A DNA stretch of 64,000 nucleotides from an uncultured Acidobacteriota bacterium (GCA_963755695.1 CAVWLB010000010.1:1196328-1260327); one strand, 5' to 3'; positions 2,880 through 59,965 are shown, numbered from the stretch's first letter. The notes: generated by a model from the letters alone, not told the origin. A program made the numbers and translations.

Positions 2880-3046
2880 ACAGAACAAGCGCAGGCCACT
2901 GAAAACACGGAAGAACACGGCAAAGAAGACAGAACACGCGGCAAGAGGACAGAAAGACAGGGAACCCCACTCTCTCTGTGTCTTTCGTGTCTTTTGTGTC
3001 TTTGTGTCCTCTGTGTTATTCAGTGTTCTTCTGTGGCCCTGATCTG
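2880..3046. repeat. inverted arrays of GAACACG/GACAGAA-type units (long imperfect hairpin)
   Basis: Left arm 2880-2966 (cacagaac..ggaagaacacggcaaagaagacagaacacg..). Right arm 2972-3046 is its complement (ctgtgtctttcgtgtcttttgtgtc..gttcttctgtgg). Starts 3 nt after the pepA stop. Confidence 0.85.
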
Positions 3047-3321: not shown

Positions 3322-3340
3322 ACGCTTGCGTCGGGCACAG

Positions 3341-3434
3341 GGGCTAGCAGCTGGGAGCTAGGAGTTAGGAGCTGGAGTAAACCTTCTCATTATCGATCTA
3401 GCTCCCAGCTCCCAGCTCCTAGCCCCCAGCTCCT
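3341..3434. repeat. inverted arrays GCTGGGA/GCTAGGA versus TCCCAGC/TCCTAGC
   Basis: Arm 3341-3377 (gggctagcagctgggagctaggagttaggagctggag), 20-nt loop, arm 3398-3434 (ctagctcccagctcccagctcctagcccccagctcc). Overlaps the amidase stop. Confidence 0.85.
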
Positions 3435-9647: not shown

Positions 9648-10379
9648 TCAGCCTTTAAAATCGACCGACCTCGCCAGCCGCGCGAGCTCGCGCAGCTCCA
9701 GCGTCTCGGGACGCCGGCGCGCGTCGATTTCCGCCCGTGCCAGCGCCCTCGCCGGGTCGACGCCGAGCGGCTCGGCGAACGGACGCAAGGCATTGACCAA
9801 CGTCTTACGGCGCTGCATGAAGATGGTCCGGACCAGCCGCTCGAAACTGGCCGCATCTTCGATTGCAACCGTTGGCGGCCGGAAGACGAGTCGCACCACC
9901 GCAGATCGAACCTTCGGCATGGGCCGGAATGCGCCCGGCGGAAGCGTCAGCACTCGGGTGACGTCGGCGGAGAGCCGGGTGAGGATGCCCAGCACTCCGT
10001 AATCGGCCGTCCCGACCGGCGCGGTTAACCGTTCCGCCACTTCCGCCTGCAGCATGATGGTCGCGTCCCGAATCGCCGCCGTTCGGCGGGCCGTTTCCAT
10101 CAACTTGAACAGGATCGGCGACGAGATGTTGTAAGGGAGGTTCCCGGCGACCCGCAGCGGTCCGCCGGCCGTCATCTCCGCGAGATCCATCGAGAGCACG
10201 TCGCCGACGATGACACGGGCGTTGGACGGCAGTGAAGGGGCCAGGCGGGCAGCAAGGTCGCGGTCGATTTCGACGGCCGTCAGCTCGCGCACCCGCGGCG
10301 CAAGTCTCGTCGTGATGATGCCGGGACCCGGGCCGATTTCCAGAAATCGGTCGTCAGGCCGAGGGGCAATCGCCTCCAC
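9648..10379 (-). CDS. rsmA: 16S rRNA (adenine1518/1519-N6)-dimethyltransferase RsmA/KsgA (true start probably upstream of 10379)
   Basis: SAM motif LEIGPGPGIITTRL and NLPYNISSPI. The conserved N-terminal KRFGQHFL lies in frame upstream (10380-10430) of the GTG used by the ORF track. Confidence 0.9.
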   Translation of the reverse strand: MEAIAPRPDDRFLEIGPGPGIITTRLAPRVRELTAVEIDRDLAARLAPSLPSNARVIVGDVLSMDLAEMTAGGPLRVAGNLPYNISSPILFKLMETARRTAAIRDATIMLQAEVAERLTAPVGTADYGVLGILTRLSADVTRVLTLPPGAFRPMPKVRSAVVRLVFRPPTVAIEDAASFERLVRTIFMQRRKTLVNALRPFAEPLGVDPARALARAEIDARRRPETLELRELARLARSVDFKG

Positions 10380-10447
10380 GACCTTGTCCGCCCATACGGG
10401 CTCGAGGAAGTGCTGGCCGAATCGTTTCCTCGGCCGGGACTTGCGTT

Positions 10448-10846
10448 CTAGGCCTGCTCGATCGACTCGCCGCGCCAGAATTTCTCCTCAATCTCTTCGA
10501 TCTCTTCCTCGCTCATCCCGAAGTAGTGGCCGAACTCGTGGATCACGGTTTCAGCGATGCAGTCGCGAATCTCTTCCTCGTCGGCGCACGCCTCTTCGAT
10601 CGGTCGTTGATAGATCGAAATGCGATCCGGGAGGCTGTTGCCGTAGCCCCATCCGCGCTGCGTGAGCGGCGTGCCGTGATAGAGACCGAACAGCGTATCC
10701 CCCTCGTCGATCTCCATTTCCTCGAGGATGTCCGGCGATGGTTCTTCTTCCACCACGACGGCCACGTTGCGCATCGCCTTTCGAAACCGTCGCGGAATCT
10801 CACGGAGCGCTTCCTCGACCAGCACAGTGAAGGCCTCGCGCGTCAC
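10448..10846 (-). CDS. zincin-like metallopeptidase family protein (DUF1025-type)
   Basis: 132-aa acidic protein with an HExxH motif (VIHEFGHYFG). SD AGGAGG upstream of the GTG start. Confidence 0.75.
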   Translation of the reverse strand: MTREAFTVLVEEALREIPRRFRKAMRNVAVVVEEEPSPDILEEMEIDEGDTLFGLYHGTPLTQRGWGYGNSLPDRISIYQRPIEEACADEEEIRDCIAETVIHEFGHYFGMSEEEIEEIEEKFWRGESIEQA

Positions 10847-11571
10847 CGTGCCCTCCTTGGCTTCAGGCTTCGGGCTGCAGGCTTCAAGCTTCGGGTTTCA
10901 TTCTTCACACCGGCAACCTTGCGCGGACGGGTGACGACCCCAAGCACGCTTCGGTAGTAGCTGCAATCGTCGCGAACGACGCATCGATCGCAGAGCGGCT
11001 TCGGCTTGCAGATTCGGCGGCCGTGCAGGATCAGGGTATCGGAGGTCAGCGTCCAGTGCTTCGGCGGCATTGCCGCACACAGCTGTTGTTCGACGACCTC
11101 AGGATCATCGGACTTCGCGATGCCGATCCGGTTCGACACGCGGAGCACGTGACGGTCTACCGGAAGGCCTGGCACGCCGAGGGCATGACCGAGGACCACG
11201 TTCGCCGTCTTGCGGCCGACGCCGGGGAGTCCCGTGAGATCTTCCATCCGCGGCGGGATCTCTCCTCGGTACCGCTCCACGACCACCTTGGCCATTCCAA
11301 CCAGCGCCTTCGATTTCATGCGGAAGAAGCCGGTCGACTGGATCTGCGGCTCGAGTTCGTCGGTGCTGGCCGTCGCAAGCGCCCGCGGGTCGGGGTAGCG
11401 CTTGAACAGCGCCGGCGTCACCTGGTTCACCCGTTCATCAGTGCACTGCGCCGAGAGGATCGTGGCGACGAGCAACTCGTACGCGTTCGAGTAGTGCAGC
11501 TCGGTATCCGCATTCGGGTGCTGCTTGGCGAGCTTCTTGATGATCGCGCGCGTCTCGGCTCGCGAGGGCAT
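10843..11571 (-). CDS. nth: endonuclease III
   Basis: HhH-GPD (LTGLPGVGRKTANVVLG) and Fe-S cluster (CKPKPLCDRCVVRDDC). Start placed at MPSRAETRA; the ORF-track extension to 11640 reads through a repeat arm. The ~35-aa C-terminal tail is encoded by a heptamer array. Confidence 0.88.
   Translation of the reverse strand: MPSRAETRAIIKKLAKQHPNADTELHYSNAYELLVATILSAQCTDERVNQVTPALFKRYPDPRALATASTDELEPQIQSTGFFRMKSKALVGMAKVVVERYRGEIPPRMEDLTGLPGVGRKTANVVLGHALGVPGLPVDRHVLRVSNRIGIAKSDDPEVVEQQLCAAMPPKHWTLTSDTLILHGRRICKPKPLCDRCVVRDDCSYYRSVLGVVTRPRKVAGVKNETRSLKPAARSLKPRRAR
10859..10898. repeat. GGCTTCA/GGCTTCG/GGCTGCA heptamer array inside the nth 3-prime tail
   Basis: ggcttcaggcttcgggctgcaggcttcaagcttcgggtttc; translated on the minus strand as ..SLKPAARSLKP.. 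Confidence 0.75.
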
Positions 11572-11593
11572 GAGGGTATTGTAGGGGATTCTC

Positions 11594-12199
11594 ACAATCG
11601 AAGAGTCGAAGGAAGACCGAAGGGTCGAAGGAGCACCCAATGGTTATCGAAGGAGCAACCAGGCCTTATCGAAGGAGCAACCTAGCCCTATCGAAGGAGC
11701 ATCCAAGCCTTATCGAACGAGCGAAGGAGCGGAGGAGCGATAAAGGCCCCATCAGGATTCTTCAAAGTTGGAGGGCGGTTGGACTCGCGTTCGTTGGCCC
11801 GCTTCCTTTGATTCCGCCGCCGGGGATCTCTCGAGATCCGGATGCAGGACCCGACGGATACCGTGTCGAAGAATCGGCACATTGAAGTTGATGCGGAAAC
11901 CGACGGACAGGCCCGTCATCTTCAGGTACGTCTTCACCTGCGCGATGTGTACCGGCAGCACTTGCTCCACTGCCTTGATTTCGACGATGACGGTCTGCTC
12001 GACAAGCAGGTCGAGCCTGTACGAGCAGGGCAGCTGCCTGTTGCGCTCCGTCGGACCTGCAACCCTTCAGGCCTAAGATCTTCGGATTGAGAATCCCTCA
12101 GATTCGAGATCCTTCGAATCTTCGACCTTCGAGCTCCTTCGAAGAATAAAAGAGCGTTCTCCTTCGACTCCTTCGCTCTTCCTTCGAACCTTCGATTGT
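11594..12199. mobile_element. inverted-repeat-bounded intergenic element carrying a truncated GxxExxY gene
   Basis: Arms 11594-11638 and 12153-12199 are ~41/47 identical in inverted orientation (acaatcgaagagtcgaaggaagaccgaagggtcgaaggag vs the complement of ctccttcgactccttcgctcttccttcgaaccttcgattgt). Both arms are TCGAAGGA-type arrays. The element fills the whole dinB-nth spacer. Confidence 0.45.
11752..12066 (-). pseudogene. GxxExxY-family (PD-(D/E)XK-like) protein, 5-prime truncated fragment
   Basis: Encodes ..CSYRLDLLVEQTVIVEIKAVEQVLPVHIAQVKTYLKMTGLSVGFRINFNVPILRHGIRRVL. This aligns to the C-terminal half of the intact copy at 57399-57836. An in-frame TGA at 12067-12069 precedes it, and the GxxExxY motif region is missing. 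Confidence 0.7.
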
Positions 12200-13246
12200 C
12201 TAGACAGCAAACAGCGCAGGATCCCCACCTGCCCTCAACAGACCCGGGCAGGTGACGTTGACGGAGCGGACCGGGCGGTCGGGGCGGGACCTCTTCTCGA
12301 GCAACTCGCACGCAACGGCGGCCAGCGGTTCGTCGAGGGCAGAGGGTTGCGCGAGTGCGGCAGTCCGCGACTCGACGCGGCCGTCGACGTGACGGAGGCG
12401 CACGGTGACCGACCGCGCAAACATCCCGTGCGCCCGCAGTTGACGCCCGAGGTGTTCGGCCCGCGCCCGGACCAGCGCTCTCAGCACCTCCGCATCCGCA
12501 GTGGGCGTTGGCAGTTCGTAGTCATCGATCGGAGCGTGAAGGAGTGCCGTCGGTCGAACCCGCGTGAAATCGATGCCCGCCGCGTGCCGTGTGAGCGCCG
12601 CGGCGGGACGACCGGCCAGGAGAGCGAGTTGCGCCTCTGAGAATTTGGCGAGCTGGCCGAGTCGCCGTATGCCGGCAGCGCGAAGCTTCCGGCCGAGCGC
12701 CGCGTCGACACCTGGGAGCAGTTCGATCTTCAAGGGCGCGAGGAATCGGGCCTCGTATCCCTCGAGCACGTGAACGACACCACGCGGACGCGCGAGCTGA
12801 GACGCAATCCGCGCAACCACCTTGGATCGGGCCAGTCCACAGGCGGCGTCCAGCCCCATCGCCTGCAGCGCCGCCTGGATCCGCTCGATGGCGGCAATGT
12901 CGGCCGAGGCGGTGGATGCGCGCGGCATCGCCATGAACGCTTCGTCGATCGACATCCACTCGATGTCGGCGCTCTCGCGCCTGAGCACCTCGTCGACCCG
13001 CGCGGATGCCGCGAGGTAGGCATCGACTGCGCCGCCGAGAAAGATCGCCTGGGGACATCGCACCGATGCCTGCGCGAGCAGCATGCCCGGACGAACGCCT
13101 GCCCGCCGTGCTTCGCGCGAGGCCGCCGCCACGACGCCGCCGCTCCCGGGACGGCCGCCAATCACCACCGCCTGACCGATCAGGTCCGGTCTGCGCGCAC
13201 GCTCAACCGCAATGAAAAACGATCCAAGATCGACGTGGGCAATCAT
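12200..13246 (-). CDS. dinB: Y-family DNA polymerase (DNA polymerase IV-like)
   Basis: 348-aa ORF with an N-terminus typical of DinB (IAHVDLGSFFIAVERARRPDL..VVIGG..GVVAAASREARRAGVRPGM). Confidence 0.85.
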   Translation of the reverse strand: MIAHVDLGSFFIAVERARRPDLIGQAVVIGGRPGSGGVVAAASREARRAGVRPGMLLAQASVRCPQAIFLGGAVDAYLAASARVDEVLRRESADIEWMSIDEAFMAMPRASTASADIAAIERIQAALQAMGLDAACGLARSKVVARIASQLARPRGVVHVLEGYEARFLAPLKIELLPGVDAALGRKLRAAGIRRLGQLAKFSEAQLALLAGRPAAALTRHAAGIDFTRVRPTALLHAPIDDYELPTPTADAEVLRALVRARAEHLGRQLRAHGMFARSVTVRLRHVDGRVESRTAALAQPSALDEPLAAVACELLEKRSRPDRPVRSVNVTCPGLLRAGGDPALFAV

Positions 13247-13285
13247 GGCGCCTTCCGGCAGCCGTTTCCGTTCGGCGTCCTCCGG

Positions 13286-13603
13286 CTAATGCACCGGGCC
13301 CTTGTCCCAGCCAGGCGGCGTCCCGGTCGACTCGGTGAACACCCGCACGTGTTCCTGCAGGGCGGCGATCAGGTTGGGCACGACCTGGAGCGGCAGGACA
13401 ATGCGTACGCGGACGGGGGCTTTGATGGTGTGCTCCTGCTCGGCGGCCTCGATGTCTCTCTGCGAGAGCGGCTGCACTTCGCAGAACGACAGCGTGAAAT
13501 CGAACGGCGTGTGCGAAATTGCGCAGAAGTTCGCGTACGTCCGCGGCGAGTCGCCGGTCTCGTCGGGAACGATGGTGAAATTGATCTGTTTGCGTTCGTT
13601 CAT
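13286..13603 (-). CDS. DUF3467-like small protein
   Basis: 105-aa ORF (..YANFCAISHTPFDFTLSF..) matching my memory of DUF3467. Sits 16 nt after lexA and 39 nt before dinB. Confidence 0.7.
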   Translation of the reverse strand: MNERKQINFTIVPDETGDSPRTYANFCAISHTPFDFTLSFCEVQPLSQRDIEAAEQEHTIKAPVRVRIVLPLQVVPNLIAALQEHVRVFTESTGTPPGWDKGPVH

Positions 13604-13619
13604 GCCCCAGTATGCGCGA

Positions 13620-14225
13620 TCAATACCGGCGCATGACGCCGATCACCACCCCCTGCACTTGCACCTGCTCCGAGGGGACGATGATCGGCTGCATCGCAGG
13701 ATTGGCCGGCTGGAGGCGGATGTTCCCCTGTTCGCGATACAGCTTCTTCAACGTGACGTCGGCGCCGTTCAGCAACGCGATGACCATTTCCCCGTTTTCC
13801 GCCGTCCGGCGATCTTCGACGATGACGTAGTCGCCGTCCCGAATCTGCTCGTCGATCATCGAGTCGCCCTTGACGCGCAGCACATAGGTATCGCGCTTGC
13901 CGACGAGGTCTTCCGGCACCGCAATGGTTTCGCTGCCAACGACGGCTTCGATTGGAACGCCGGCGGCGACGTACCCGAGCAGCGGCAGTTCGACGGCCCG
14001 GCCCCCGAGCCGCGACGAGACGAGCTCGACCGAACGACTGCGATTCCACGCGCGCTTGATGAATCCTTTTTCCTGAAGATTGGTCAGGTGCTTGTGGACG
14101 GTCGCGAGCGATGACAGGCCGAAGCGACGGCCGATTTCCTCCAGGCTTGGCGCATAGCCATGTTGCTGAATGAAATCGTTGAGGTAGTCGAGAATCTCCC
14201 GCTGGCGTTTCGTCAGTGGCAGCAT
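13620..14225 (-). CDS. lexA: LexA repressor
   Basis: wHTH N-terminus (LTKRQREILDYL..HGYAPSLEEIG) plus S24 peptidase domain (LRVKGDSMIDEQIRDGDYVIV). Confidence 0.93.
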   Translation of the reverse strand: MLPLTKRQREILDYLNDFIQQHGYAPSLEEIGRRFGLSSLATVHKHLTNLQEKGFIKRAWNRSRSVELVSSRLGGRAVELPLLGYVAAGVPIEAVVGSETIAVPEDLVGKRDTYVLRVKGDSMIDEQIRDGDYVIVEDRRTAENGEMVIALLNGADVTLKKLYREQGNIRLQPANPAMQPIIVPSEQVQVQGVVIGVMRRY

Positions 14226-16009: not shown

Positions 16010-16072
16010 GGCTTCGGGCTTCGGGCTTCGGGCTCCGGGCTCCGGGCTCCAGGAGCCTGAAGCCTGAAGCCC
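16010..16072. repeat. heptamer arrays GGCTTCG x3, GGCTCCG x3 followed by the complementary GAAGCCT units
   Basis: ggcttcgggcttcgggcttcgggctccgggctccgggctccaggagcctgaagcctgaagccc; starts 3 nt after the stop at 16007. Confidence 0.85.
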
Positions 16073-16732: not shown

Positions 16733-16740
16733 TGTCCCGG

Positions 16741-16810
16741 TTCAATGTTCATGTTCACTGTTCAATGCCGAACGCTTGAGAACTGGAACATTCAGCGTTG
16801 AGCATTGAGC
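16741..16810. repeat. inverted TTCAATG/TTCACTG-type arrays
   Basis: ttcaatgttcatgttcactgttcaatg .. gaacattcagcgttgagcattgag (imperfect complement). Confidence 0.6.
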
Positions 16811-18966
16811 GGTCGAGCATGATGATGGATCCCCTCCAAGGTTCTCTGCAGTACCTGAAAGGTGTCGGACCGAGACGCGCGGCTGATCTGCAGCGGGTCG
16901 GCCTCTCGACGATCGAGGATCTTCTCTATCGCTTTCCCACGCGATACGAAGACCGGGGTCATTTCCAGACCATTGCTTCGCTGAAACCAGGCGTGGCGGC
17001 CTCGATTGCGGGTGAAGTCCTGAGCTGCGGCGTGCGCCCGACTCGCCGGCCACGGTTCAAGATTTTCGAAATGCTCGTCCGCGATCGGACCGGCAGCCTG
17101 CGCGCGATCTGGTTCAACCAGCCGTTCCTCAACGACATCTTCCGCCCGCACCAGCGGGTCATTCTGTTCGGCAAGCTGGAGCTGACGTCGCACGGCTTGC
17201 AGATGCAGGGCCCCCAGTACAAACTGCTCGAAGCAGTCGAAGGGGACGAAGGAATCGAAGGAGCGGCCGAAGGAATCGAGAGCGCGGCCGATTCGGATCG
17301 GTCGACGGTTCACACCGGCCGTATCGTTCCCATTTACGAGAAGACCGGGCAGCTCACGGCGAAGATGCAGCGCACGCTCGTGCATCATGCGCTGGAGCAG
17401 TTGCCGCCCGAGCTTCCGGATCCGCTTCCGCCGGACGTGCGGAACCGGCAACAGCTGATCGACCGGCGAGCCGCGCTCGACGCGGTGCACTTTCCGCCGG
17501 CCGACGCCTCGCTCGGTGAGCTCAACGCGTTTCGTTCACCCGCGCACCGGCGGCTCATCTTCGAGGAGTTCTTCCTCTTTCAGCTCGGCATCGTGCAACG
17601 GCGGCGACGGGCGGACTCGGAACGCAAGGCCCGCGCGGTCGTGGTCACCGACACCACCCGCGAGGCGGTGCGCAAGATCCTGCCGTTCCGGCTGACCAAC
17701 GATCAGAAGACGGTCATTCGCGAGATCGTGCGCGACATGGAACGGCCGCAGCCGATGAACCGGCTGCTGCAGGGAGACGTCGGCTCCGGCAAGACGATCG
17801 TGGCGTTGATGGCGGCGCTGGTCGCGATGGAGAACGGCCTGCAGGTTGCCTTCATGGCGCCGACCGAAATCCTGGCCGAGCAGCACTTCTTCAACGTCCG
17901 CCGGCTGCTCGAACAGTCGCGGTTCCGATTGACGCTGTTGACCGGCGGCACGCCCGCACGGAAGCGACGGGAACTCCTCGCGGAGCTCGCCGGCGGTTCC
18001 ATGCACATGGTCATCGGCACGCACGCACTCGTGCAGGAGGACGTGGCGTTTCGCGAGCTCGGCCTGGCGATCATCGACGAGCAGCATCGGTTCGGGGTCC
18101 TGCAGCGCGCGACGCTGCGCGCCAAGGGACTGCACCCCGACGTCCTGGTCATGACCGCGACCCCCATCCCGCGCACGCTGGCGTTGACCACCTACGGCGA
18201 TCTCGACGTATCGACCATGCGGGAGATGCCACCGGGCCGGCAGCCGATCGCCACGACGGTGCGTCCGGAGTCACGGCGCGACGAGATCTACCAGTTCGTC
18301 CGTGAGCAGATCGACGCGGGTCGCCAGGGCTACATCATCTATCCGCTGGTCGAGGAGTCGGCGAAGGTCGATCTCAAGGCCGCGACCGAGATGGCCGACC
18401 ATCTGTCACAGGATGTGTTTCCGCAATATCGGGTCGCGCTGCTCCACGGCCGGATGAAGCAGGACGCCAAGGATCGGGTGATGGGCGCGTTCGCGCGCAA
18501 CGAGTTTCAGATTCTCGTGTCGACGACGGTGGTGGAGGTGGGTGTCGACGTTCCGAACGCCACGGTGATGGTCGTCGAACATGCCGAGCGATTCGGCCTG
18601 TCGCAGCTCCATCAGCTGCGCGGACGCGTCGGCCGCGGCCCGCACAAGTCGCACTGCGTGCTCCTCTATCAATACCCAATCACCGACGAGGGCAAGGCGC
18701 GGCTCAAGGCACTGGCCGAGACAACCGATGGTTTCGAGATCGCGGAACGCGATCTGAACCTGCGCGGGCCCGGGGATTTCTTCGGCACCCGTCAGTCGGG
18801 GATGCCGACGCTTCGCGTCGGCGACCTGCTGCGCGATCATGCCTTGATGGAAGAAGCGAGGCGCGAAGCCGTTGCCGCGCTCGACGATCCGTCGCAGGCC
18901 GCGGCGCTCACCTCGCTCATCGATACGAGCTGGGAACATCGGTTCGGCCTGGTGGGAATAGGGTAG
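16798..18966 (+). CDS. recG: ATP-dependent DNA helicase RecG
   Basis: Walker A GDVGSGKT and DEQH box (IIDEQHRFGV); helicase C-terminus. The likely start is ATG 16819 (MMMDPLQG). Confidence 0.93.
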   Translation: MSIERSSMMMDPLQGSLQYLKGVGPRRAADLQRVGLSTIEDLLYRFPTRYEDRGHFQTIASLKPGVAASIAGEVLSCGVRPTRRPRFKIFEMLVRDRTGSLRAIWFNQPFLNDIFRPHQRVILFGKLELTSHGLQMQGPQYKLLEAVEGDEGIEGAAEGIESAADSDRSTVHTGRIVPIYEKTGQLTAKMQRTLVHHALEQLPPELPDPLPPDVRNRQQLIDRRAALDAVHFPPADASLGELNAFRSPAHRRLIFEEFFLFQLGIVQRRRRADSERKARAVVVTDTTREAVRKILPFRLTNDQKTVIREIVRDMERPQPMNRLLQGDVGSGKTIVALMAALVAMENGLQVAFMAPTEILAEQHFFNVRRLLEQSRFRLTLLTGGTPARKRRELLAELAGGSMHMVIGTHALVQEDVAFRELGLAIIDEQHRFGVLQRATLRAKGLHPDVLVMTATPIPRTLALTTYGDLDVSTMREMPPGRQPIATTVRPESRRDEIYQFVREQIDAGRQGYIIYPLVEESAKVDLKAATEMADHLSQDVFPQYRVALLHGRMKQDAKDRVMGAFARNEFQILVSTTVVEVGVDVPNATVMVVEHAERFGLSQLHQLRGRVGRGPHKSHCVLLYQYPITDEGKARLKALAETTDGFEIAERDLNLRGPGDFFGTRQSGMPTLRVGDLLRDHALMEEARREAVAALDDPSQAAALTSLIDTSWEHRFGLVGIG

Positions 18967-19135
18967 GCGTCGAATCGAGGCCCGAGGTCCGAGGCCCGAG
19001 GTCCGAGGCCCGAGGTCCGAGGCCCGAGGTCCGAGGTCGATCCGAGGTCCGAGGCTCGAGATCCGAGATCCGAGGTCCGAGATCTGAGGTCCGAGGCTCG
19101 AGATCCGAGATCCGGGATCCGAGGTCCGAAAAGCA
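18967..19135. repeat. tandem heptamer array CCGAGGT/CCGAGGC/CCGAGAT, ~23 units, direct only
   Basis: ccgaggtccgaggcccgaggtccgaggc... begins 1 nt after the recG stop. Confidence 0.9.
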
Positions 19136-26685: not shown

Positions 26686-26691
26686 AATATA
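26686..26691 (-). promoter_or_regulatory. -10 box TATATT 6 nt upstream of the ATG at 26679 (leaderless-type)
   Basis: Minus strand reads gtcTATATTggtaagATG. Confidence 0.3.
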
Positions 26692-26785
26692 GACTGAAGA
26701 CTGCAGATTGAAGATTAAAGACTGAAGCTTGGAGATTGAAGATCAAACACTGAAGACTGGAGATTGGAGCCTCCTGCCTTCTGTC
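26690..26785. repeat. GAAGATT/GAAGACT-family heptamer array, direct only
   Basis: agactgaagactgcagattgaagattaaagactgaagcttggagattgaagatcaaacactgaagactggagattggag. Confidence 0.8.
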
Positions 26786-28829: not shown

Positions 28830-28960
28830 AGTGAAGACTGAAGATTGAAGATTGCAGATTGGAATTGAAGACTGACGACTGACGACTGACGATTGACGAC
28901 TGACGATTGACGATTGAAGATTGACGATTGACGACTGAAGAAGGAAGTACTCTGCGTTCG
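28830..28960. repeat. GAAGATT then GACGACT/GACGATT heptamer array, direct only
   Basis: gaagactgaagattgaagattgcagatt..gactgacgactgacgactgacgattgacgactgacgattgacgattgaagatt..; begins right after the rho stop. Confidence 0.9.
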
Positions 28961-30347: not shown

Positions 30348-30390
30348 GATTTGGTGATTTGGTGATTTGGGGATTTGGTGATTGCAGGTC
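30345..30390. repeat. tandem GGTGATTT x ~5
   Basis: ggatttggtgatttggtgatttggggatttggtgatt. The reverse-complement array is at 42283-42326. Confidence 0.85.
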
Positions 30391-30519: not shown

Positions 30520-30633
30520 AGAACTTGAACCCGGACCTCGGATCTCGAATTTCGGACCTCGAACCTCGGATCTCGGACCTCGAACCTCGGACCTCGAACC
30601 TCGGACCTCGGACCTCGGACCTCGGACCTCGAC
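30520..30633. repeat. tandem heptamer array ACCTCGG/ACCTCGA (reverse complement of the 18967-19135 unit)
   Basis: cggacctcggatctcgaatttcggacctcgaacctcggatctcggacctcgaacctcggacctcgaacctcggacctcggacctcgg...; abuts the ATG at 30634. Confidence 0.9.
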
Positions 30634-42276: not shown

Positions 42277-42282
42277 CCTCGA

Positions 42283-42326
42283 AATCACTAAATCACTAAA
42301 TCACAAATCACCAAATCACCAATTCA
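42283..42326. repeat. tandem AAATCACY x ~5 (reverse complement of the 30345-30390 unit)
   Basis: gaaatcactaaatcactaaatcacaaatcaccaaatcaccaattc. Confidence 0.85.
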
Positions 42327-49321: not shown

Positions 49322-49335
49322 CGGCGGACGGTAAC

Positions 49336-49374
49336 GGGGTCTGACCCCGGGGTCTGACCCCGGGGTCAGACCCC
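49336..49374. repeat. three tandem copies of the self-complementary 13-mer GGGGTCWGACCCC between convergent genes
   Basis: ggggtctgaccccggggtctgaccccggggtcagacccc; candidate bidirectional terminator. Confidence 0.8.
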
Positions 49375-56865: not shown

Positions 56866-57174
56866 GGAAACCAGACCTCGAGTAAGGAATGAGGCAGAAC
56901 CGGCGTGCGGGTCCCTGTCAATCTTACATCGAAGGATGCGCGCATCTTCTACGCGACGGCGTTCGTGCGTTCGACGGCGGCTGGACTCACCGGGGTCGCG
57001 GCCGCCGTTGCCCTCCGCGAACGCGGGCTGACGGTAGGACAGTCCGGCTCGCTGCCTGGCTGGCACGGCGCATCGGTCTGGTAAAGATGATCGCCGGCGC
57101 GATGATGCAGGGCGTCGGGTCGGTAACGCGTCGCTGACTCACGCAAGGGCGCAAGGACCCAAAAGGGCTGGACC

Positions 57175-57319
57175 GTCGCGACCTGCGCCGCCGCGCAGCG
57201 GCGGCCCTGGAGGAAACGAACCCTCCAGATCAAAACGCCAGAAGATCAAGTGGCGCTTTGATCTGGAGGGTTCGTTTCCTCCGACGCGGCCCGGCTTCGC
57301 TGGGCCCGCAGGTCGCGAC
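57175..57319. other. 145-bp nested palindromic element (candidate structured RNA or MITE core)
   Basis: Outer 13-bp stem gtcgcgacctgcg / cgcaggtcgcgac. Inner hairpins ccgccgc-gca-gcggcgg and ggccc..gggcc. Central ~31-bp stem ggaggaaacgaaccctccagatcaaaacgcca / tggcgctttgatctggagggttcgtttcctcc with 1 mismatch. Confidence 0.6.
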
Positions 57320-57398
57320 TCGTACATTTGCGGTAAGAAATCAAAGTGAACACTCTGACTTGATCAGCGGTGCTTTGATCTGGCGGATCCCCTTAGTT

Positions 57399-57836
57399 CT
57401 ACGACGGCCCGGCTTCGCCGAGCCGTAGATCGCCATTCGTGCCTTCAGGAAAGTGGTTCACGATGCGGCGTACGCCGCTCCTCATGGTCTCTTCTCCAAA
57501 GTTCATCAGTAGCCCGAGCGGGCAGCCAGTGAGAGTTAGATATGTCCTCACCTGACGAAGGTGCACTGGCGAAATCGTTTGTAACGCCTTCACCTCAATC
57601 ACAACCACGCCTTCAACGATAAAATCGGCTACGTACGCCCGCGGTACCCAGAGCTCCTCATAGTGCAGGTCGAGTTCAACGTTGGCCTCGAACTGCAAGC
57701 CTCGCCTCCGCATCTCGTACGCGAGGCAAGGGGAGTAAGTCGATTCGAAGCACCCAGGGCCGAACGCCTTGTGGAGTGCAATGGCGCCGAGGACGATCTC
57801 ACGAGCGATACGATTGATTTCTTGTTCCGTAGCCAC
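57399..57836 (-). CDS. GxxExxY-family protein (PD-(D/E)XK-like)
   Basis: GTG start near 57836 (VATEQEINRIAREIV..). GxxExxY motif GCFESTY and core FIVEGVVVIEVKALQ..HLRQVRTYLTLTG. The C-terminal ~15 aa read into a flanking repeat. The ORF-track N-terminal extension to 57992 is discounted. Confidence 0.75.
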   Translation of the reverse strand: MATEQEINRIAREIVLGAIALHKAFGPGCFESTYSPCLAYEMRRRGLQFEANVELDLHYEELWVPRAYVADFIVEGVVVIEVKALQTISPVHLRQVRTYLTLTGCPLGLLMNFGEETMRSGVRRIVNHFPEGTNGDLRLGEAGPS

Positions 57837-58013
57837 GTTGCCCCTGAAGCAGGCGACGTGCCACCGTGCTTTGCAAGGGCTTGCGCCGGATCCAGGCCAA
57901 TGTGTTGCAAGAATCGCAAACATCGTTGAAATGAAGTGTTGAACTAATTGCGTTTGCGCCCTTGCGCCATTGCGTGAGACAAAGGTAACCACGCGGGCAC
58001 ATGGTGTTTATGA

Positions 58014-58994
58014 ATGCGTAACGGCCTGATTCTTCTTAGCCTTGTGGCGTGCGCATGTGCGGCTCCCCGCGCTGAAATGCCACTCACTATCGCCGGACGC
58101 ATCGAATTGCCCGGAGTCGAGGGACGGTTCGATCATTTCGCGTTCGATTCCGGCAGTGGCCGGTTGTTCGTGGCTGCGCTTGGCAACAACTCCATAGAGG
58201 TAATAGATACGCACGACGCGAAGCGTGTGACCTCAGTAGGTGGAGTCGACGAACCGCAGGGGCTCGGGTTCGTTGCTCCCGGCACGCTGATCGTCGCCAA
58301 TGGCGGAACCGGCGAGGTGCAGTTTCGCGAGGGAGGCGACTTGCAGGTCGCCGCCCGTCTTGAAACCGTGGGCGATGCCGATAACGTGCGGTACGACTCT
58401 GCGGCTGGGCGTGCGTACGTCGGCGTGGGCTCCGGCGCACTCGTCGCGATCGACCCCTCCGGCGCCAAAAAGATGAACGAGGTGCATCTGCCTGCCCATC
58501 CGGAATCATTCCAGCTCGAACGGACCGGCGCACGCATATTCATCAACGTTCCCAACGCCCACCAGGTTGCCGTCGTCGACCGGCAATCGATGTCGATCGT
58601 GGCAACGTGGAAGGTCACCGCCGCGGCCGCCAACTATCCGATGGCACTCGATGAAGATGCCAAGCGGCTGTTCGTGGTGTGCCGCAGTCCTGCGCGGGCG
58701 CTCGTCTACGATACGACTGGCGGCGCGCTGACCGAGTCATTCGAAACGGTCGGCGATGCTGACGATGTGTTCTGGGACGGGCGGCGGAAGCGTCTCTACG
58801 TGATTGGGGGAACGGGCTTCATTGACGTCTTTCAACAGGCGGAAGGCAACCGCTTCACGCGGGTCGCTCACCTGGCGACTGGATCCGGCGCGCGCACCGG
58901 ACTCTTCGTTTCAGAAATCGATAGGCTGTTCGTTGCCGTTCCGCACCGCGGAGAACAGCGGGCGGCAATTCTAATGTTGGAACCTCGGGACTGA
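58014..58994 (+). CDS. YncE/YVTN-like beta-propeller protein
   Basis: 326-aa ORF with a lipoprotein-like signal (LILLSLVACACA) and repeated ..G.L.V...G...V.V.D.. blades. Confidence 0.65.
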   Translation: MRNGLILLSLVACACAAPRAEMPLTIAGRIELPGVEGRFDHFAFDSGSGRLFVAALGNNSIEVIDTHDAKRVTSVGGVDEPQGLGFVAPGTLIVANGGTGEVQFREGGDLQVAARLETVGDADNVRYDSAAGRAYVGVGSGALVAIDPSGAKKMNEVHLPAHPESFQLERTGARIFINVPNAHQVAVVDRQSMSIVATWKVTAAAANYPMALDEDAKRLFVVCRSPARALVYDTTGGALTESFETVGDADDVFWDGRRKRLYVIGGTGFIDVFQQAEGNRFTRVAHLATGSGARTGLFVSEIDRLFVAVPHRGEQRAAILMLEPRD

Positions 58995-59856: not shown

Positions 59857-59965
59857 GGCTCAGGGCTCAACGCTCAGGGCTCATGCTTGCTCAAGGCCAT
59901 TAAGCCAAAAGAAGGCTCGAGACTCAGAGCTCAGAGACCATAAGCCGCCCTGAGCCCTGAGCCAT
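59857..59965. repeat. GCTCAGGG arrays with complementary CCCTGAGC units (imperfect hairpin)
   Basis: ggctcagggctcaacgctcagggctcatg .. gccgccctgagccctgagcc. Confidence 0.7.

Follow-up and report, generated by a model that had tools for sequence, protein, structure and literature searches.

The dinB-nth spacer and the gene fragment it holds

In a 64,000-nt stretch of DNA from an uncultured Acidobacteriota bacterium (GCA_963755695.1, CAVWLB010000010.1:1196328-1260327; hereafter the window), the spacer between dinB and nth holds part of a gene of the GxxExxY family, which encodes PD-(D/E)XK-like proteins, set between two inverted arms and tandem arrays of short units (Table 1). The bracket formed by the arms begins at the first base after the dinB stop codon and ends 22 nt short of the nth ATG. 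The initial annotation of this DNA had the bracket spanning a dinB-nth spacer of 606 bp in its entirety; 606 nt is indeed the length of the element, but the true spacer is 628 nt (11572-12199).

Table 1. Features of the dinB-nth locus and of the second GxxExxY cassette in the window
Feature	Position	Strand	Remarks
5' terminal arm ACAATCGAAGGTTCGAAGGAAGAGCGAAGGAGTCGAAGGAGAAC	12156-12199	-	sense = minus strand; adjoins the dinB stop codon
3' terminal arm ...CCTTCGGTCTTCCTTCGACTCTTCGATTGT	11594-11636	-	sense strand; pairs with 12156-12199
Upstream array remnant	12067-12155	-	two TCGAAGGA units (12110-12117, 12135-12142), with ~60 nt of filler that cannot be assigned
GxxExxY / PDDEXK_3 pseudogene, C-terminal half only	11752-12066	-	two in-frame stops ahead
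Downstream tandem array, 4.5 copies of a 22-nt unit	11625-11722	-	sense core GCTCCTTCGA
dinB (IMS + IMS_C)	12200-13246	-	upstream flanking gene
nth (HhH-GPD endonuclease III)	10843-11571	-	downstream flanking gene
nth leader GAGAATCCCCTACAATACCCTC	11572-11593	-	outside the element; core CCCTACAATACCC also in the empty site
lexA-DUF3467-dinB-[cassette]-nth-zincin(PF06262)-ksgA cluster	9648-14225	-	co-oriented
Second GxxExxY cassette, intact	57135-57981	-	arms 57135-57163 / 57953-57981, 29 nt, 86%
Second cassette gene, full-length GxxExxY	about 57399-57830	-	PF13366 117.8 bits, profile 2-117 of 117

By sequence the loop gene is a clear member of the GxxExxY family (TIGR04256 / PF13366) that lacks the name-giving N-terminal half. 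Among the family matches for the loop open reading frame (ORF) there was only PF13366 (PDDEXK_3), of whose 117 positions the fragment covers 53-117 with 67.3 bits (cut-off 22); against the TIGR04256 GxxExxY profile it covers positions 52-115 of 116 with 68.6 bits (cut-off 35). Both profiles thus confirm the earlier assignment of this interval to the C-terminal half of a GxxExxY protein. Homology with full-length relatives spans about 12045 to 11761, and across the shared part the closest full-length relative, P0005, is 94% identical to the fragment. P0005 and its fellow relatives (P0001-P0005) have ~56 extra N-terminal residues, the GxxExxY motif among them, so the motif-bearing N-terminus is missing here as had been claimed, and where one in-frame stop had been reported ahead of the fragment there are two. 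The partial profile match, the two upstream stops and the loss of ~56 residues together indicate a pseudogene fragment of a family member. The D...ExK part of the PD-(D/E)XK core is kept, with D19, E29 and K31 of the fragment in invariant columns; two nearly invariant leucines have become F-R (GFRINFN vs GLLINFN). The closest named GxxExxY relatives are from Vicinamibacterales metagenome-assembled genomes (MAGs). A frameshifted N-terminus was considered and rejected: the three frames 5' of 12066 hold only low-complexity repeat DNA, and the ~135 nt there are insufficient for 56 lost codons.

A repeat search found the inverted arms as 30-nt segments (11594-11623 and 12170-12199), 90% complementary and 546 nt apart. 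Gapped local alignment lengthens them to the intervals in Table 1, in which 39 of 44 columns match with one gap, so that the previous figure of ~41/47 over 11594-11638 and 12153-12199 was about right. The arm score of 30 was not reached in any of 1000 dinucleotide-preserving shuffles of the flanks (8.9±1.3, maximum 16). The 8-mer TCGAAGGA occurs 14 times in the window against 3.1±1.9 expected (0/100 shuffles), and nine of these copies lie in the dinB-nth spacer, five on the plus strand at its left end and four on the minus strand at its right end. The core of the downstream array, GCTCCTTCGA, is the reverse complement of the upstream core.

The element lies in a co-oriented gene cluster that runs from lexA to ksgA and is retained in two relatives (L005 and L092 below), so that it interrupts what looks like an SOS-linked operon; all the genes flanking it share its orientation. 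Promoter-like and terminator-like sites were looked for in the spacer proper (11572-12199) and none was found; the single terminator-like match lies inside the 3' end of dinB (12216-12232). An intrinsic terminator or ordinary regulatory hairpin, for which a short GC-rich stem before a T run or a promoter consensus would speak, is therefore not supported. Given co-oriented neighbors and no promoter-like or terminator-like site, the element is probably co-transcribed with dinB and nth. An Rfam search at E<=1 matched no known RNA family, the only match being a chance one to OxyS (18 bits vs a gathering score of 75).

For nth, the longest ORF begins at a TTG at 11640, 69 nt before the likely ATG, and runs through the 3' arm. 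Because nth homologues start at the ATG at 11571, an ORF caller could add 23 spurious codons here (11572-11640).

States of the site in related genomes

A metagenome scan based on DinB gave one locus (L087), and orthologous spacers were then reached via Nth homologues; other related loci came from exact-protein look-ups and homologue searches. Breakpoints were read by eye against L002-L004, since a MAFFT alignment put the 5' arm of the window in the wrong place.

The site proved to exist in several states. In L002, L003 and L004, whose DinB C-termini are 80% (L004, 189 aa) or 80-82% (L002 and L003, last 51 aa) identical to that of the window, there is a full cassette of more than 1 kb. After the dinB stop codon comes the terminal arm known from the window, ACAATCGAAG(G/T)TTCGAAGGAAGAGCGAAGGAGTCGAAGGAG. 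Beyond it lie 17-18-nt units, each with TCGAAGGA at its core, in a long array the copy number of which varies by contig, then a leader of ~150 nt, an intact GxxExxY gene of 155 aa, and inverted TCCTTCGA-core arrays made of 20-22-nt units in unequal copy numbers. (The contigs of these three loci all end inside arrays; such arrays break assemblies.) Relative to these cassettes the window lacks the leader and about 56-58 codons and keeps only a minor part of the upstream array, and the comparison places the deletion of the remaining array, the leader and the first codons within 12067-12155. A near-identical strain (L005) has the same truncated copy. In L088 (DinB C-terminus 96% identical) the spacer is 429 nt, the 5' arm is doubled, and only the last ~28 codons of the gene are left, inverted with respect to dinB and nth; the inverted piece fits recombination between inverted arms. 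The outer ~37 nt of the 3' arm (CCCCTTCGG...CTTCGATTGT) are identical in L088 and the window. L087, whose DinB is 76-79% identical to all the others, has an 88-nt spacer with a degenerate mini-hairpin, ACATCGACGG...CCTCCGATTGT.

A search for an orthologous empty site was also positive. In L092 (DinB and Nth each 84% identical) the spacer is ~36 nt and has no arms, but the nth leader sequence CCCTACAATACCC is kept; in L092 and L087 it stands, as CCCTACAATACCC and CCCTAAAATATC respectively, immediately 5' of the nth ATG. A discrete element with sharp ends is thus present, absent, truncated or inverted at one and the same site. The range of states (empty, full, truncated, inverted remnant, mini-hairpin) points to a decayed copy of a discrete element in the window, and the initial suggestion of a decayed small element is borne out by the full cassettes of L002-L004, by the empty L092 and by the brackets at other GxxExxY loci described below.

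The arm has changed less than the coding DNA next to it. When the window is compared with L003/L004, identity is 93% in the 5' arm, whereas it is 77-78% in the adjoining 3' end of dinB (56% at third codon positions) and 76-78% in the GxxExxY coding part. That the arm is better kept than neighboring coding DNA argues that its sequence is constrained or homogenized.

One further locus, L090 (Nth 90% identical), has the 3' end of a group II intron with a GIIM maturase domain 5' of nth (1-420). There the intron replaces dinB and the cassette, i.e., another mobile element occupies the same gene boundary.

The bracket is a feature of the GxxExxY family

Do other GxxExxY genes have such brackets? A scan with a GxxExxY alignment, one genome per species, gave 80 loci spanning Chloroflexota, Bacteroidota, Acidobacteriota, Planctomycetota, Proteobacteria, Cyanobacteria, archaea and other groups. 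Each was given a bracket score, defined as the best local inverted alignment of its 600-nt upstream and downstream flanks. The median score was 16.5, against 10.0 for between-locus pairs and 10.5 for displaced windows, and scores of at least 22 were attained at 24% of the GxxExxY loci but in neither control (0%; Mann-Whitney p about 1e-22). The downstream flank was the top partner of the upstream flank at 47 of 78 loci, where 5 are expected with ~17 windows per locus. Among 224 control ORFs in the same loci, 1.8% reached a score of 17. Flanking by inverted arrays, which the earlier annotation had proposed to look for at other GxxExxY loci, is therefore systematic, and it extends to a second copy in the window itself.

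The arms average ~38 nt with ~86% complementarity and lie at distances of 5-100 nt from the gene's start and stop codons. They are built of tandem units that are degenerate in sequence, for example CACAGAG, CGCAGAGG, CGCGGAG, CGCAAAG and CACGAAG. Complementarity drops abruptly at their outer boundary. An end motif, ACC[AG]CN[AG]AG upstream with its reverse complement downstream, was present at 39 of 80 loci (background 2.5% per 250-nt window), and the 5' arm was purine-rich in 32 of 38 loci, a few being flipped. GxxExxY genes are modestly enriched for co-orientation with their neighbors (78-84% vs a baseline of 68%).

The arms are conserved and move with the gene. Arm similarity rises with protein identity (Spearman 0.32; Mantel 0/2000), and L052 and L076, with 83% protein identity, share the same arms. 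In L001 a gene that is 71% identical likewise has TCGAAGGA arms, with the ends CAATCGAAGGA...TCCTTCGATTG; its context is unrelated, and it lies between two closed hairpins. From the correlation and from L001 it appears that arms and gene behave as a single unit. PF13366 has been described as of 'function unknown' and as having undergone multiple lateral transfers (PMC3424549); we found no description of a bracket around GxxExxY genes in the literature searched.

In a Methanosarcinales MAG (L022, 2984-5735), arms of the CGCAGAG / CTCTGCG type stand between every gene of a stretch in which a 127-aa N-terminal piece of HsdM is encoded along with GxxExxY and Fic-like proteins. A type I restriction-modification locus has apparently been broken up by these arrays.

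Second cassette and gene-less arrays in the window

The second cassette has an intact gene and takes up the whole spacer between a divergent gene (58014-58994, plus strand) and a downstream gene. Its arms are made of GCGCAAGG-type units, unlike the TCGAAGGA units of the dinB-nth copy. Within it, 3' of the gene, lies a further hairpin (57200-57291) with 41-nt arms, 88% complementary, and a 10-nt loop; a direct copy of one of these arms, 71% identical, is found 117 nt away (57366-57403).

The window also contains gene-less hairpins whose arms are tandem arrays of 7-9-nt units: 691-889 (GAAGATT), 2899-3024 (ACACGG/GACAGA vs CTCTGTG), 3339-3433 (GGGAGCT), 16010-16071 (GGCTTCG), 16740-16820 (GTTCA(A)T) and 59857-59963 (GGCTCAG). 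It had been proposed that the dinB-nth arms are made of the same kind of unit as these empty hairpins. Inverted arrays of 7-9-nt units they are, but the units are others (GAAGATT, GGGAGCT, GGCTCAG, CACAGAG-like) and not TCGAAGGA. One-armed arrays occur as well: CGAGGTC x22 (18976-19129), AGATTGA x11 (26691-26766), TGAAGAT x16 (28832-28941), GATTTGGT x4.5 (30348-30383), CGGACCT x14 (30532-30631) and AAATCACC x6 (42282-42326). These heptamer and octamer arrays resemble cyanobacterial short tandemly repeated repetitive (STRR)-type repeats, and no partner arm was seen nearby. Finally, a nearly palindromic 13-nt unit, CGGGGTCTGACCC, is repeated three times in tandem at 49335-49374 with 96% matches.

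Other cargo and likeness to known systems

Brackets also occur around other genes. Among the fetched loci, two brackets without a GxxExxY gene enclose PF05635 (23S_rRNA_IVP, four-helix bundle) genes and one encloses a GIY-YIG gene. All five PF05635-like genes in these loci, two of them confirmed by Pfam, stand between inverted arrays of tandem units that score 17.5-25.5. The small GIY-YIG ORF, in a Maribellus MAG (L009, 5683-6247), represents a third cargo family in a hairpin bracket; it lies in a perfect 26-nt inverted repeat, GTCACCCTGAGCGGAGTCGAAGGGTG, and its arm is not a tandem array. The window itself has no PF05635 relative detectable by tblastn. We rejected a direct link to rRNA, conserved 23S motifs being absent from the window and from all of 86 loci.

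Nearest to the cassette among known systems are the ORF-bearing intervening sequences (IVSs) of 23S rRNA, which in Coxiella burnetii and Leptospira, for example, resemble it in many ways: they are a few hundred nt long, with terminal inverted repeats that form a long stem; their loop contains a single small ORF that reads in the sense of the host transcript and is prone to decay; and they have tandem repeats of variable number by the ORF (here 22-nt x4.5, and 17-22-nt units in L002-L004). In the C. burnetii IVS a 28-bp terminal inverted-repeat stem carries the S23p (PF05635) ORF in its loop, the heptamer GACAGAT is repeated in tandem two to three times with a strain-variable number, RNase III cleaves in the stem, and the ORF is decaying (PMC4990558). 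The differences are that the cargo here is a PF13366 PD-(D/E)XK protein and not a four-helix PF05635 protein, that the site is the dinB-nth spacer of a protein-coding operon and not helix 25 or 45 of 23S rRNA, and that the arms are longer arrays with 17-22-nt periods and an 8-nt core. By analogy, then, the cassette appears to be built like, and would work like, a 23S rRNA IVS without the rRNA location and without the PF05635 cargo.

Other known elements share particular features with the cassette. In REPtrons a small gene, encoding a REP-associated tyrosine transposase (RAYT), stands between inverted copies of a short repetitive extragenic palindromic (REP) repeat that is also dispersed, gene-less, through the genome; the cassettes have no Y1 (RAYT) transposase, and their units vary from cassette to cassette in place of a single genome-wide family. 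Eukaryotic foldback (FB) transposons have terminal inverted repeats made of variable numbers of tandem sub-repeats around a loop that may or may not be coding, but have no homology with the cassettes. Transposons with terminal inverted repeats, including miniature inverted-repeat transposable elements (MITEs), likewise have such repeats with defined ends.

A published parallel is found in Geobacter metallireducens, which has 21-24 intergenic pairs of inverted tandem repeats per class that are absent in a sister species and were read by the authors as sites of integration host factor (IHF) or a global regulator (PMC2700814). The likeness is close: in classes 1-3 there are opposite-strand pairs of 3-5 tandem 7-9-nt units with variable spacing, and the class 2 unit TCTCCGTS is the reverse complement of CACGGAGA near GxxExxY genes (L071). 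In contrast to the cassettes, these pairs have no gene between them, and no link to GxxExxY or IVS proteins was made (PMC2700814). They look like gene-less versions of GxxExxY-type brackets.

Origin and fate of the cassette

We consider it probable that the dinB-nth spacer of the window is a decayed copy of a foldback cassette, consisting of a GxxExxY gene between inverted TCGAAGGA-core arrays, that entered as a whole and was later reduced by deletion. In an ancestor a complete cassette, arms and gene, would have inserted between dinB and nth in an SOS-type operon. Later, in this lineage, roughly 0.5 kb would have been deleted from its interior, so that the leader, the first ~56 codons and most of the upstream array were lost and the gene became a pseudogene. 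The arms themselves provoke such deletion, and also inversion, of the loop. In a dinB-cassette-nth co-transcript the arms could form a duplex of 40 bp or more that would be cut by RNase III. Excision at the RNA level by RNase III, suggested by the analogy with 23S rRNA IVSs, would explain the tolerance of insertions inside operons and rRNA. In predicted RNA folds (minimum free energy and centroid) of both window cassettes the terminal arms close a stem, with z = -7.2 for the dinB-nth copy and -9.3 for 57135-57981. Most tentatively, the arm units might serve in spread at the DNA level, as sequences that are recognized, possibly by the encoded nuclease, or that provide homology.

Several observations weigh against this account or parts of it. 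The empty L092 is nested among occupied lineages (DinB identities are 85% for L004-L092, 84% for window-L092 and 80% for window-L004), which implies either clean loss in L092 or repeated gain. If the arms were kept for their pairing in RNA, mismatches should lean to wobble pairs, but across 38 loci G:U-type mismatches (48) show no excess over A:C-type ones (53). Selection on the sense-strand RNA was accordingly rejected, there being no such signal: arm pairing is not visibly kept by RNA-stem selection on either strand. Together with the conservation of arm sequence this favors DNA-level copying, homogenization or recognition by a protein, and disfavors a purely RNA-level role. There is no clear target-site duplication, and none is evident at the dinB-nth site; direct matches of 4-5 nt next to the arms occur at 18 of 38 loci, against about 9 of 38 permuted pairs, but are inconsistent in length and position. 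The protein gives no hint of a substrate, for only a generic PD-(D/E)XK core is recognizable in its fold: an AlphaFold (AF2) model of a full-length relative (predicted local distance difference test score 93) gave, with Foldseek, weak matches to nucleases of the Cas4 and lambda-exonuclease type (best E = 2.6e-3, TM about 0.5), and no relative in the PDB was found by sequence. The occurrence of four-helix PF05635 cargo in the same type of bracket also means that the bracket does not depend on the nuclease activity of the cargo alone.

An alternative, which builds on the second proposal of the initial annotation (a nuclease gene inserted into a pre-existing hairpin), is that gene-less inverted arrays came first and that the GxxExxY gene spreads into their loops by homing, for example through cleavage of a matching empty hairpin by the nuclease and repair from a filled copy with the arms as homology. 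The window and other genomes are indeed full of empty hairpins of similar build (in G. metallireducens, 21-24 pairs per class; PMC2700814), the orthologous site of L087 has a mini-hairpin without a gene, the gene of L001 lies between two closed hairpins, and, as would be needed if the arms served for recognition or homology, their sequence is conserved and varies in step with the protein. But a hairpin is altogether missing from L092, the one clean empty site; the degenerate arms of L087 suggest a remnant more than a target; in L088 and the window filled cassettes are seen decaying to smaller states; and no empty hairpin of TCGAAGGA units was seen elsewhere in the window. As the arms and the gene travel together, insertion into a pre-existing hairpin is the less favored of the two original proposals, and we judge it unlikely. 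A classical DNA transposon or MITE, with the arms as terminal inverted repeats, the GxxExxY protein as transposase and the empty hairpins as non-autonomous copies, would account for the sharp ends, for a terminal motif conserved across phyla, for variable presence at one site and for the same type of cassette in the other context of L001. It would not predict the want of a consistent target-site duplication, a minimal nuclease of 126 aa that has no known transposase relatives, arm units that diverge between copies even in one genome (TCGAAGGA vs GCGCAAGG), or non-nuclease PF05635 cargo in the same bracket type; on balance we doubt it strongly.

The published reading of the G. metallireducens pairs (PMC2700814) would, if carried over, make the arrays binding sites of a host protein (IHF/HU-type or another global regulator) acting on dinB and nth, with the gene fragment incidental, and the constraint on arm sequence agrees with this. 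Yet the bracket is specific to PF13366 and PF05635 genes, about half of which have it against 1.8% of controls; the units vary from locus to locus within a genome; the operon of L092 does without arrays; and across genomes the arrays are largely linked to the cargo gene and not to the flanking operon. We therefore think such sites a very improbable explanation. That two independent microsatellite-like arrays arose by slippage, are complementary by accident and have nothing to do with the gene might be entertained, given that intergenic heptamer arrays are abundant in this genome and several are single-armed. This is effectively refuted by the shuffles (0/1000 reach the arm score), by the conservation of the arm in orthologous loci and by the recurrence of the architecture in 80 GxxExxY loci from many phyla.

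Wider meaning

Both the GxxExxY family and the 'four helix bundle / 23S IVS protein' family occur in many copies per genome and in numerous phyla, and the origin and mobility of 23S rRNA IVSs have been open questions since about 1990. The architecture reported here is family-wide and has apparently not been described; it ties GxxExxY genes to the IVS type of element. It is possible, though we put this forward only as a conjecture, that the genes of PF13366 and PF05635, two very large families of 'function unknown', belong as cargo to a single class of foldback-type cassette that is widespread in bacteria and archaea and has so far gone undescribed. In that event 23S IVSs would be the copies that landed in rRNA, the gene-less heptamer hairpins of the window and of Geobacter would be non-autonomous or decayed derivatives, and the arm units would be recognition sequences that co-evolve with the protein.

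A practical consequence is that long spurious ORFs can be read through the arrays, as at nth. The dinB-nth locus is itself a pseudogene relic, and its value is that it exposes an architecture common to the family. Because GxxExxY genes and the PF05635 genes of five loci stand in the same tandem-unit bracket, the origin of IVSs and the function of these families become testable, and the joint travel of GxxExxY arms and gene, with filled, empty and decaying states at one orthologous site, offers concrete tests.

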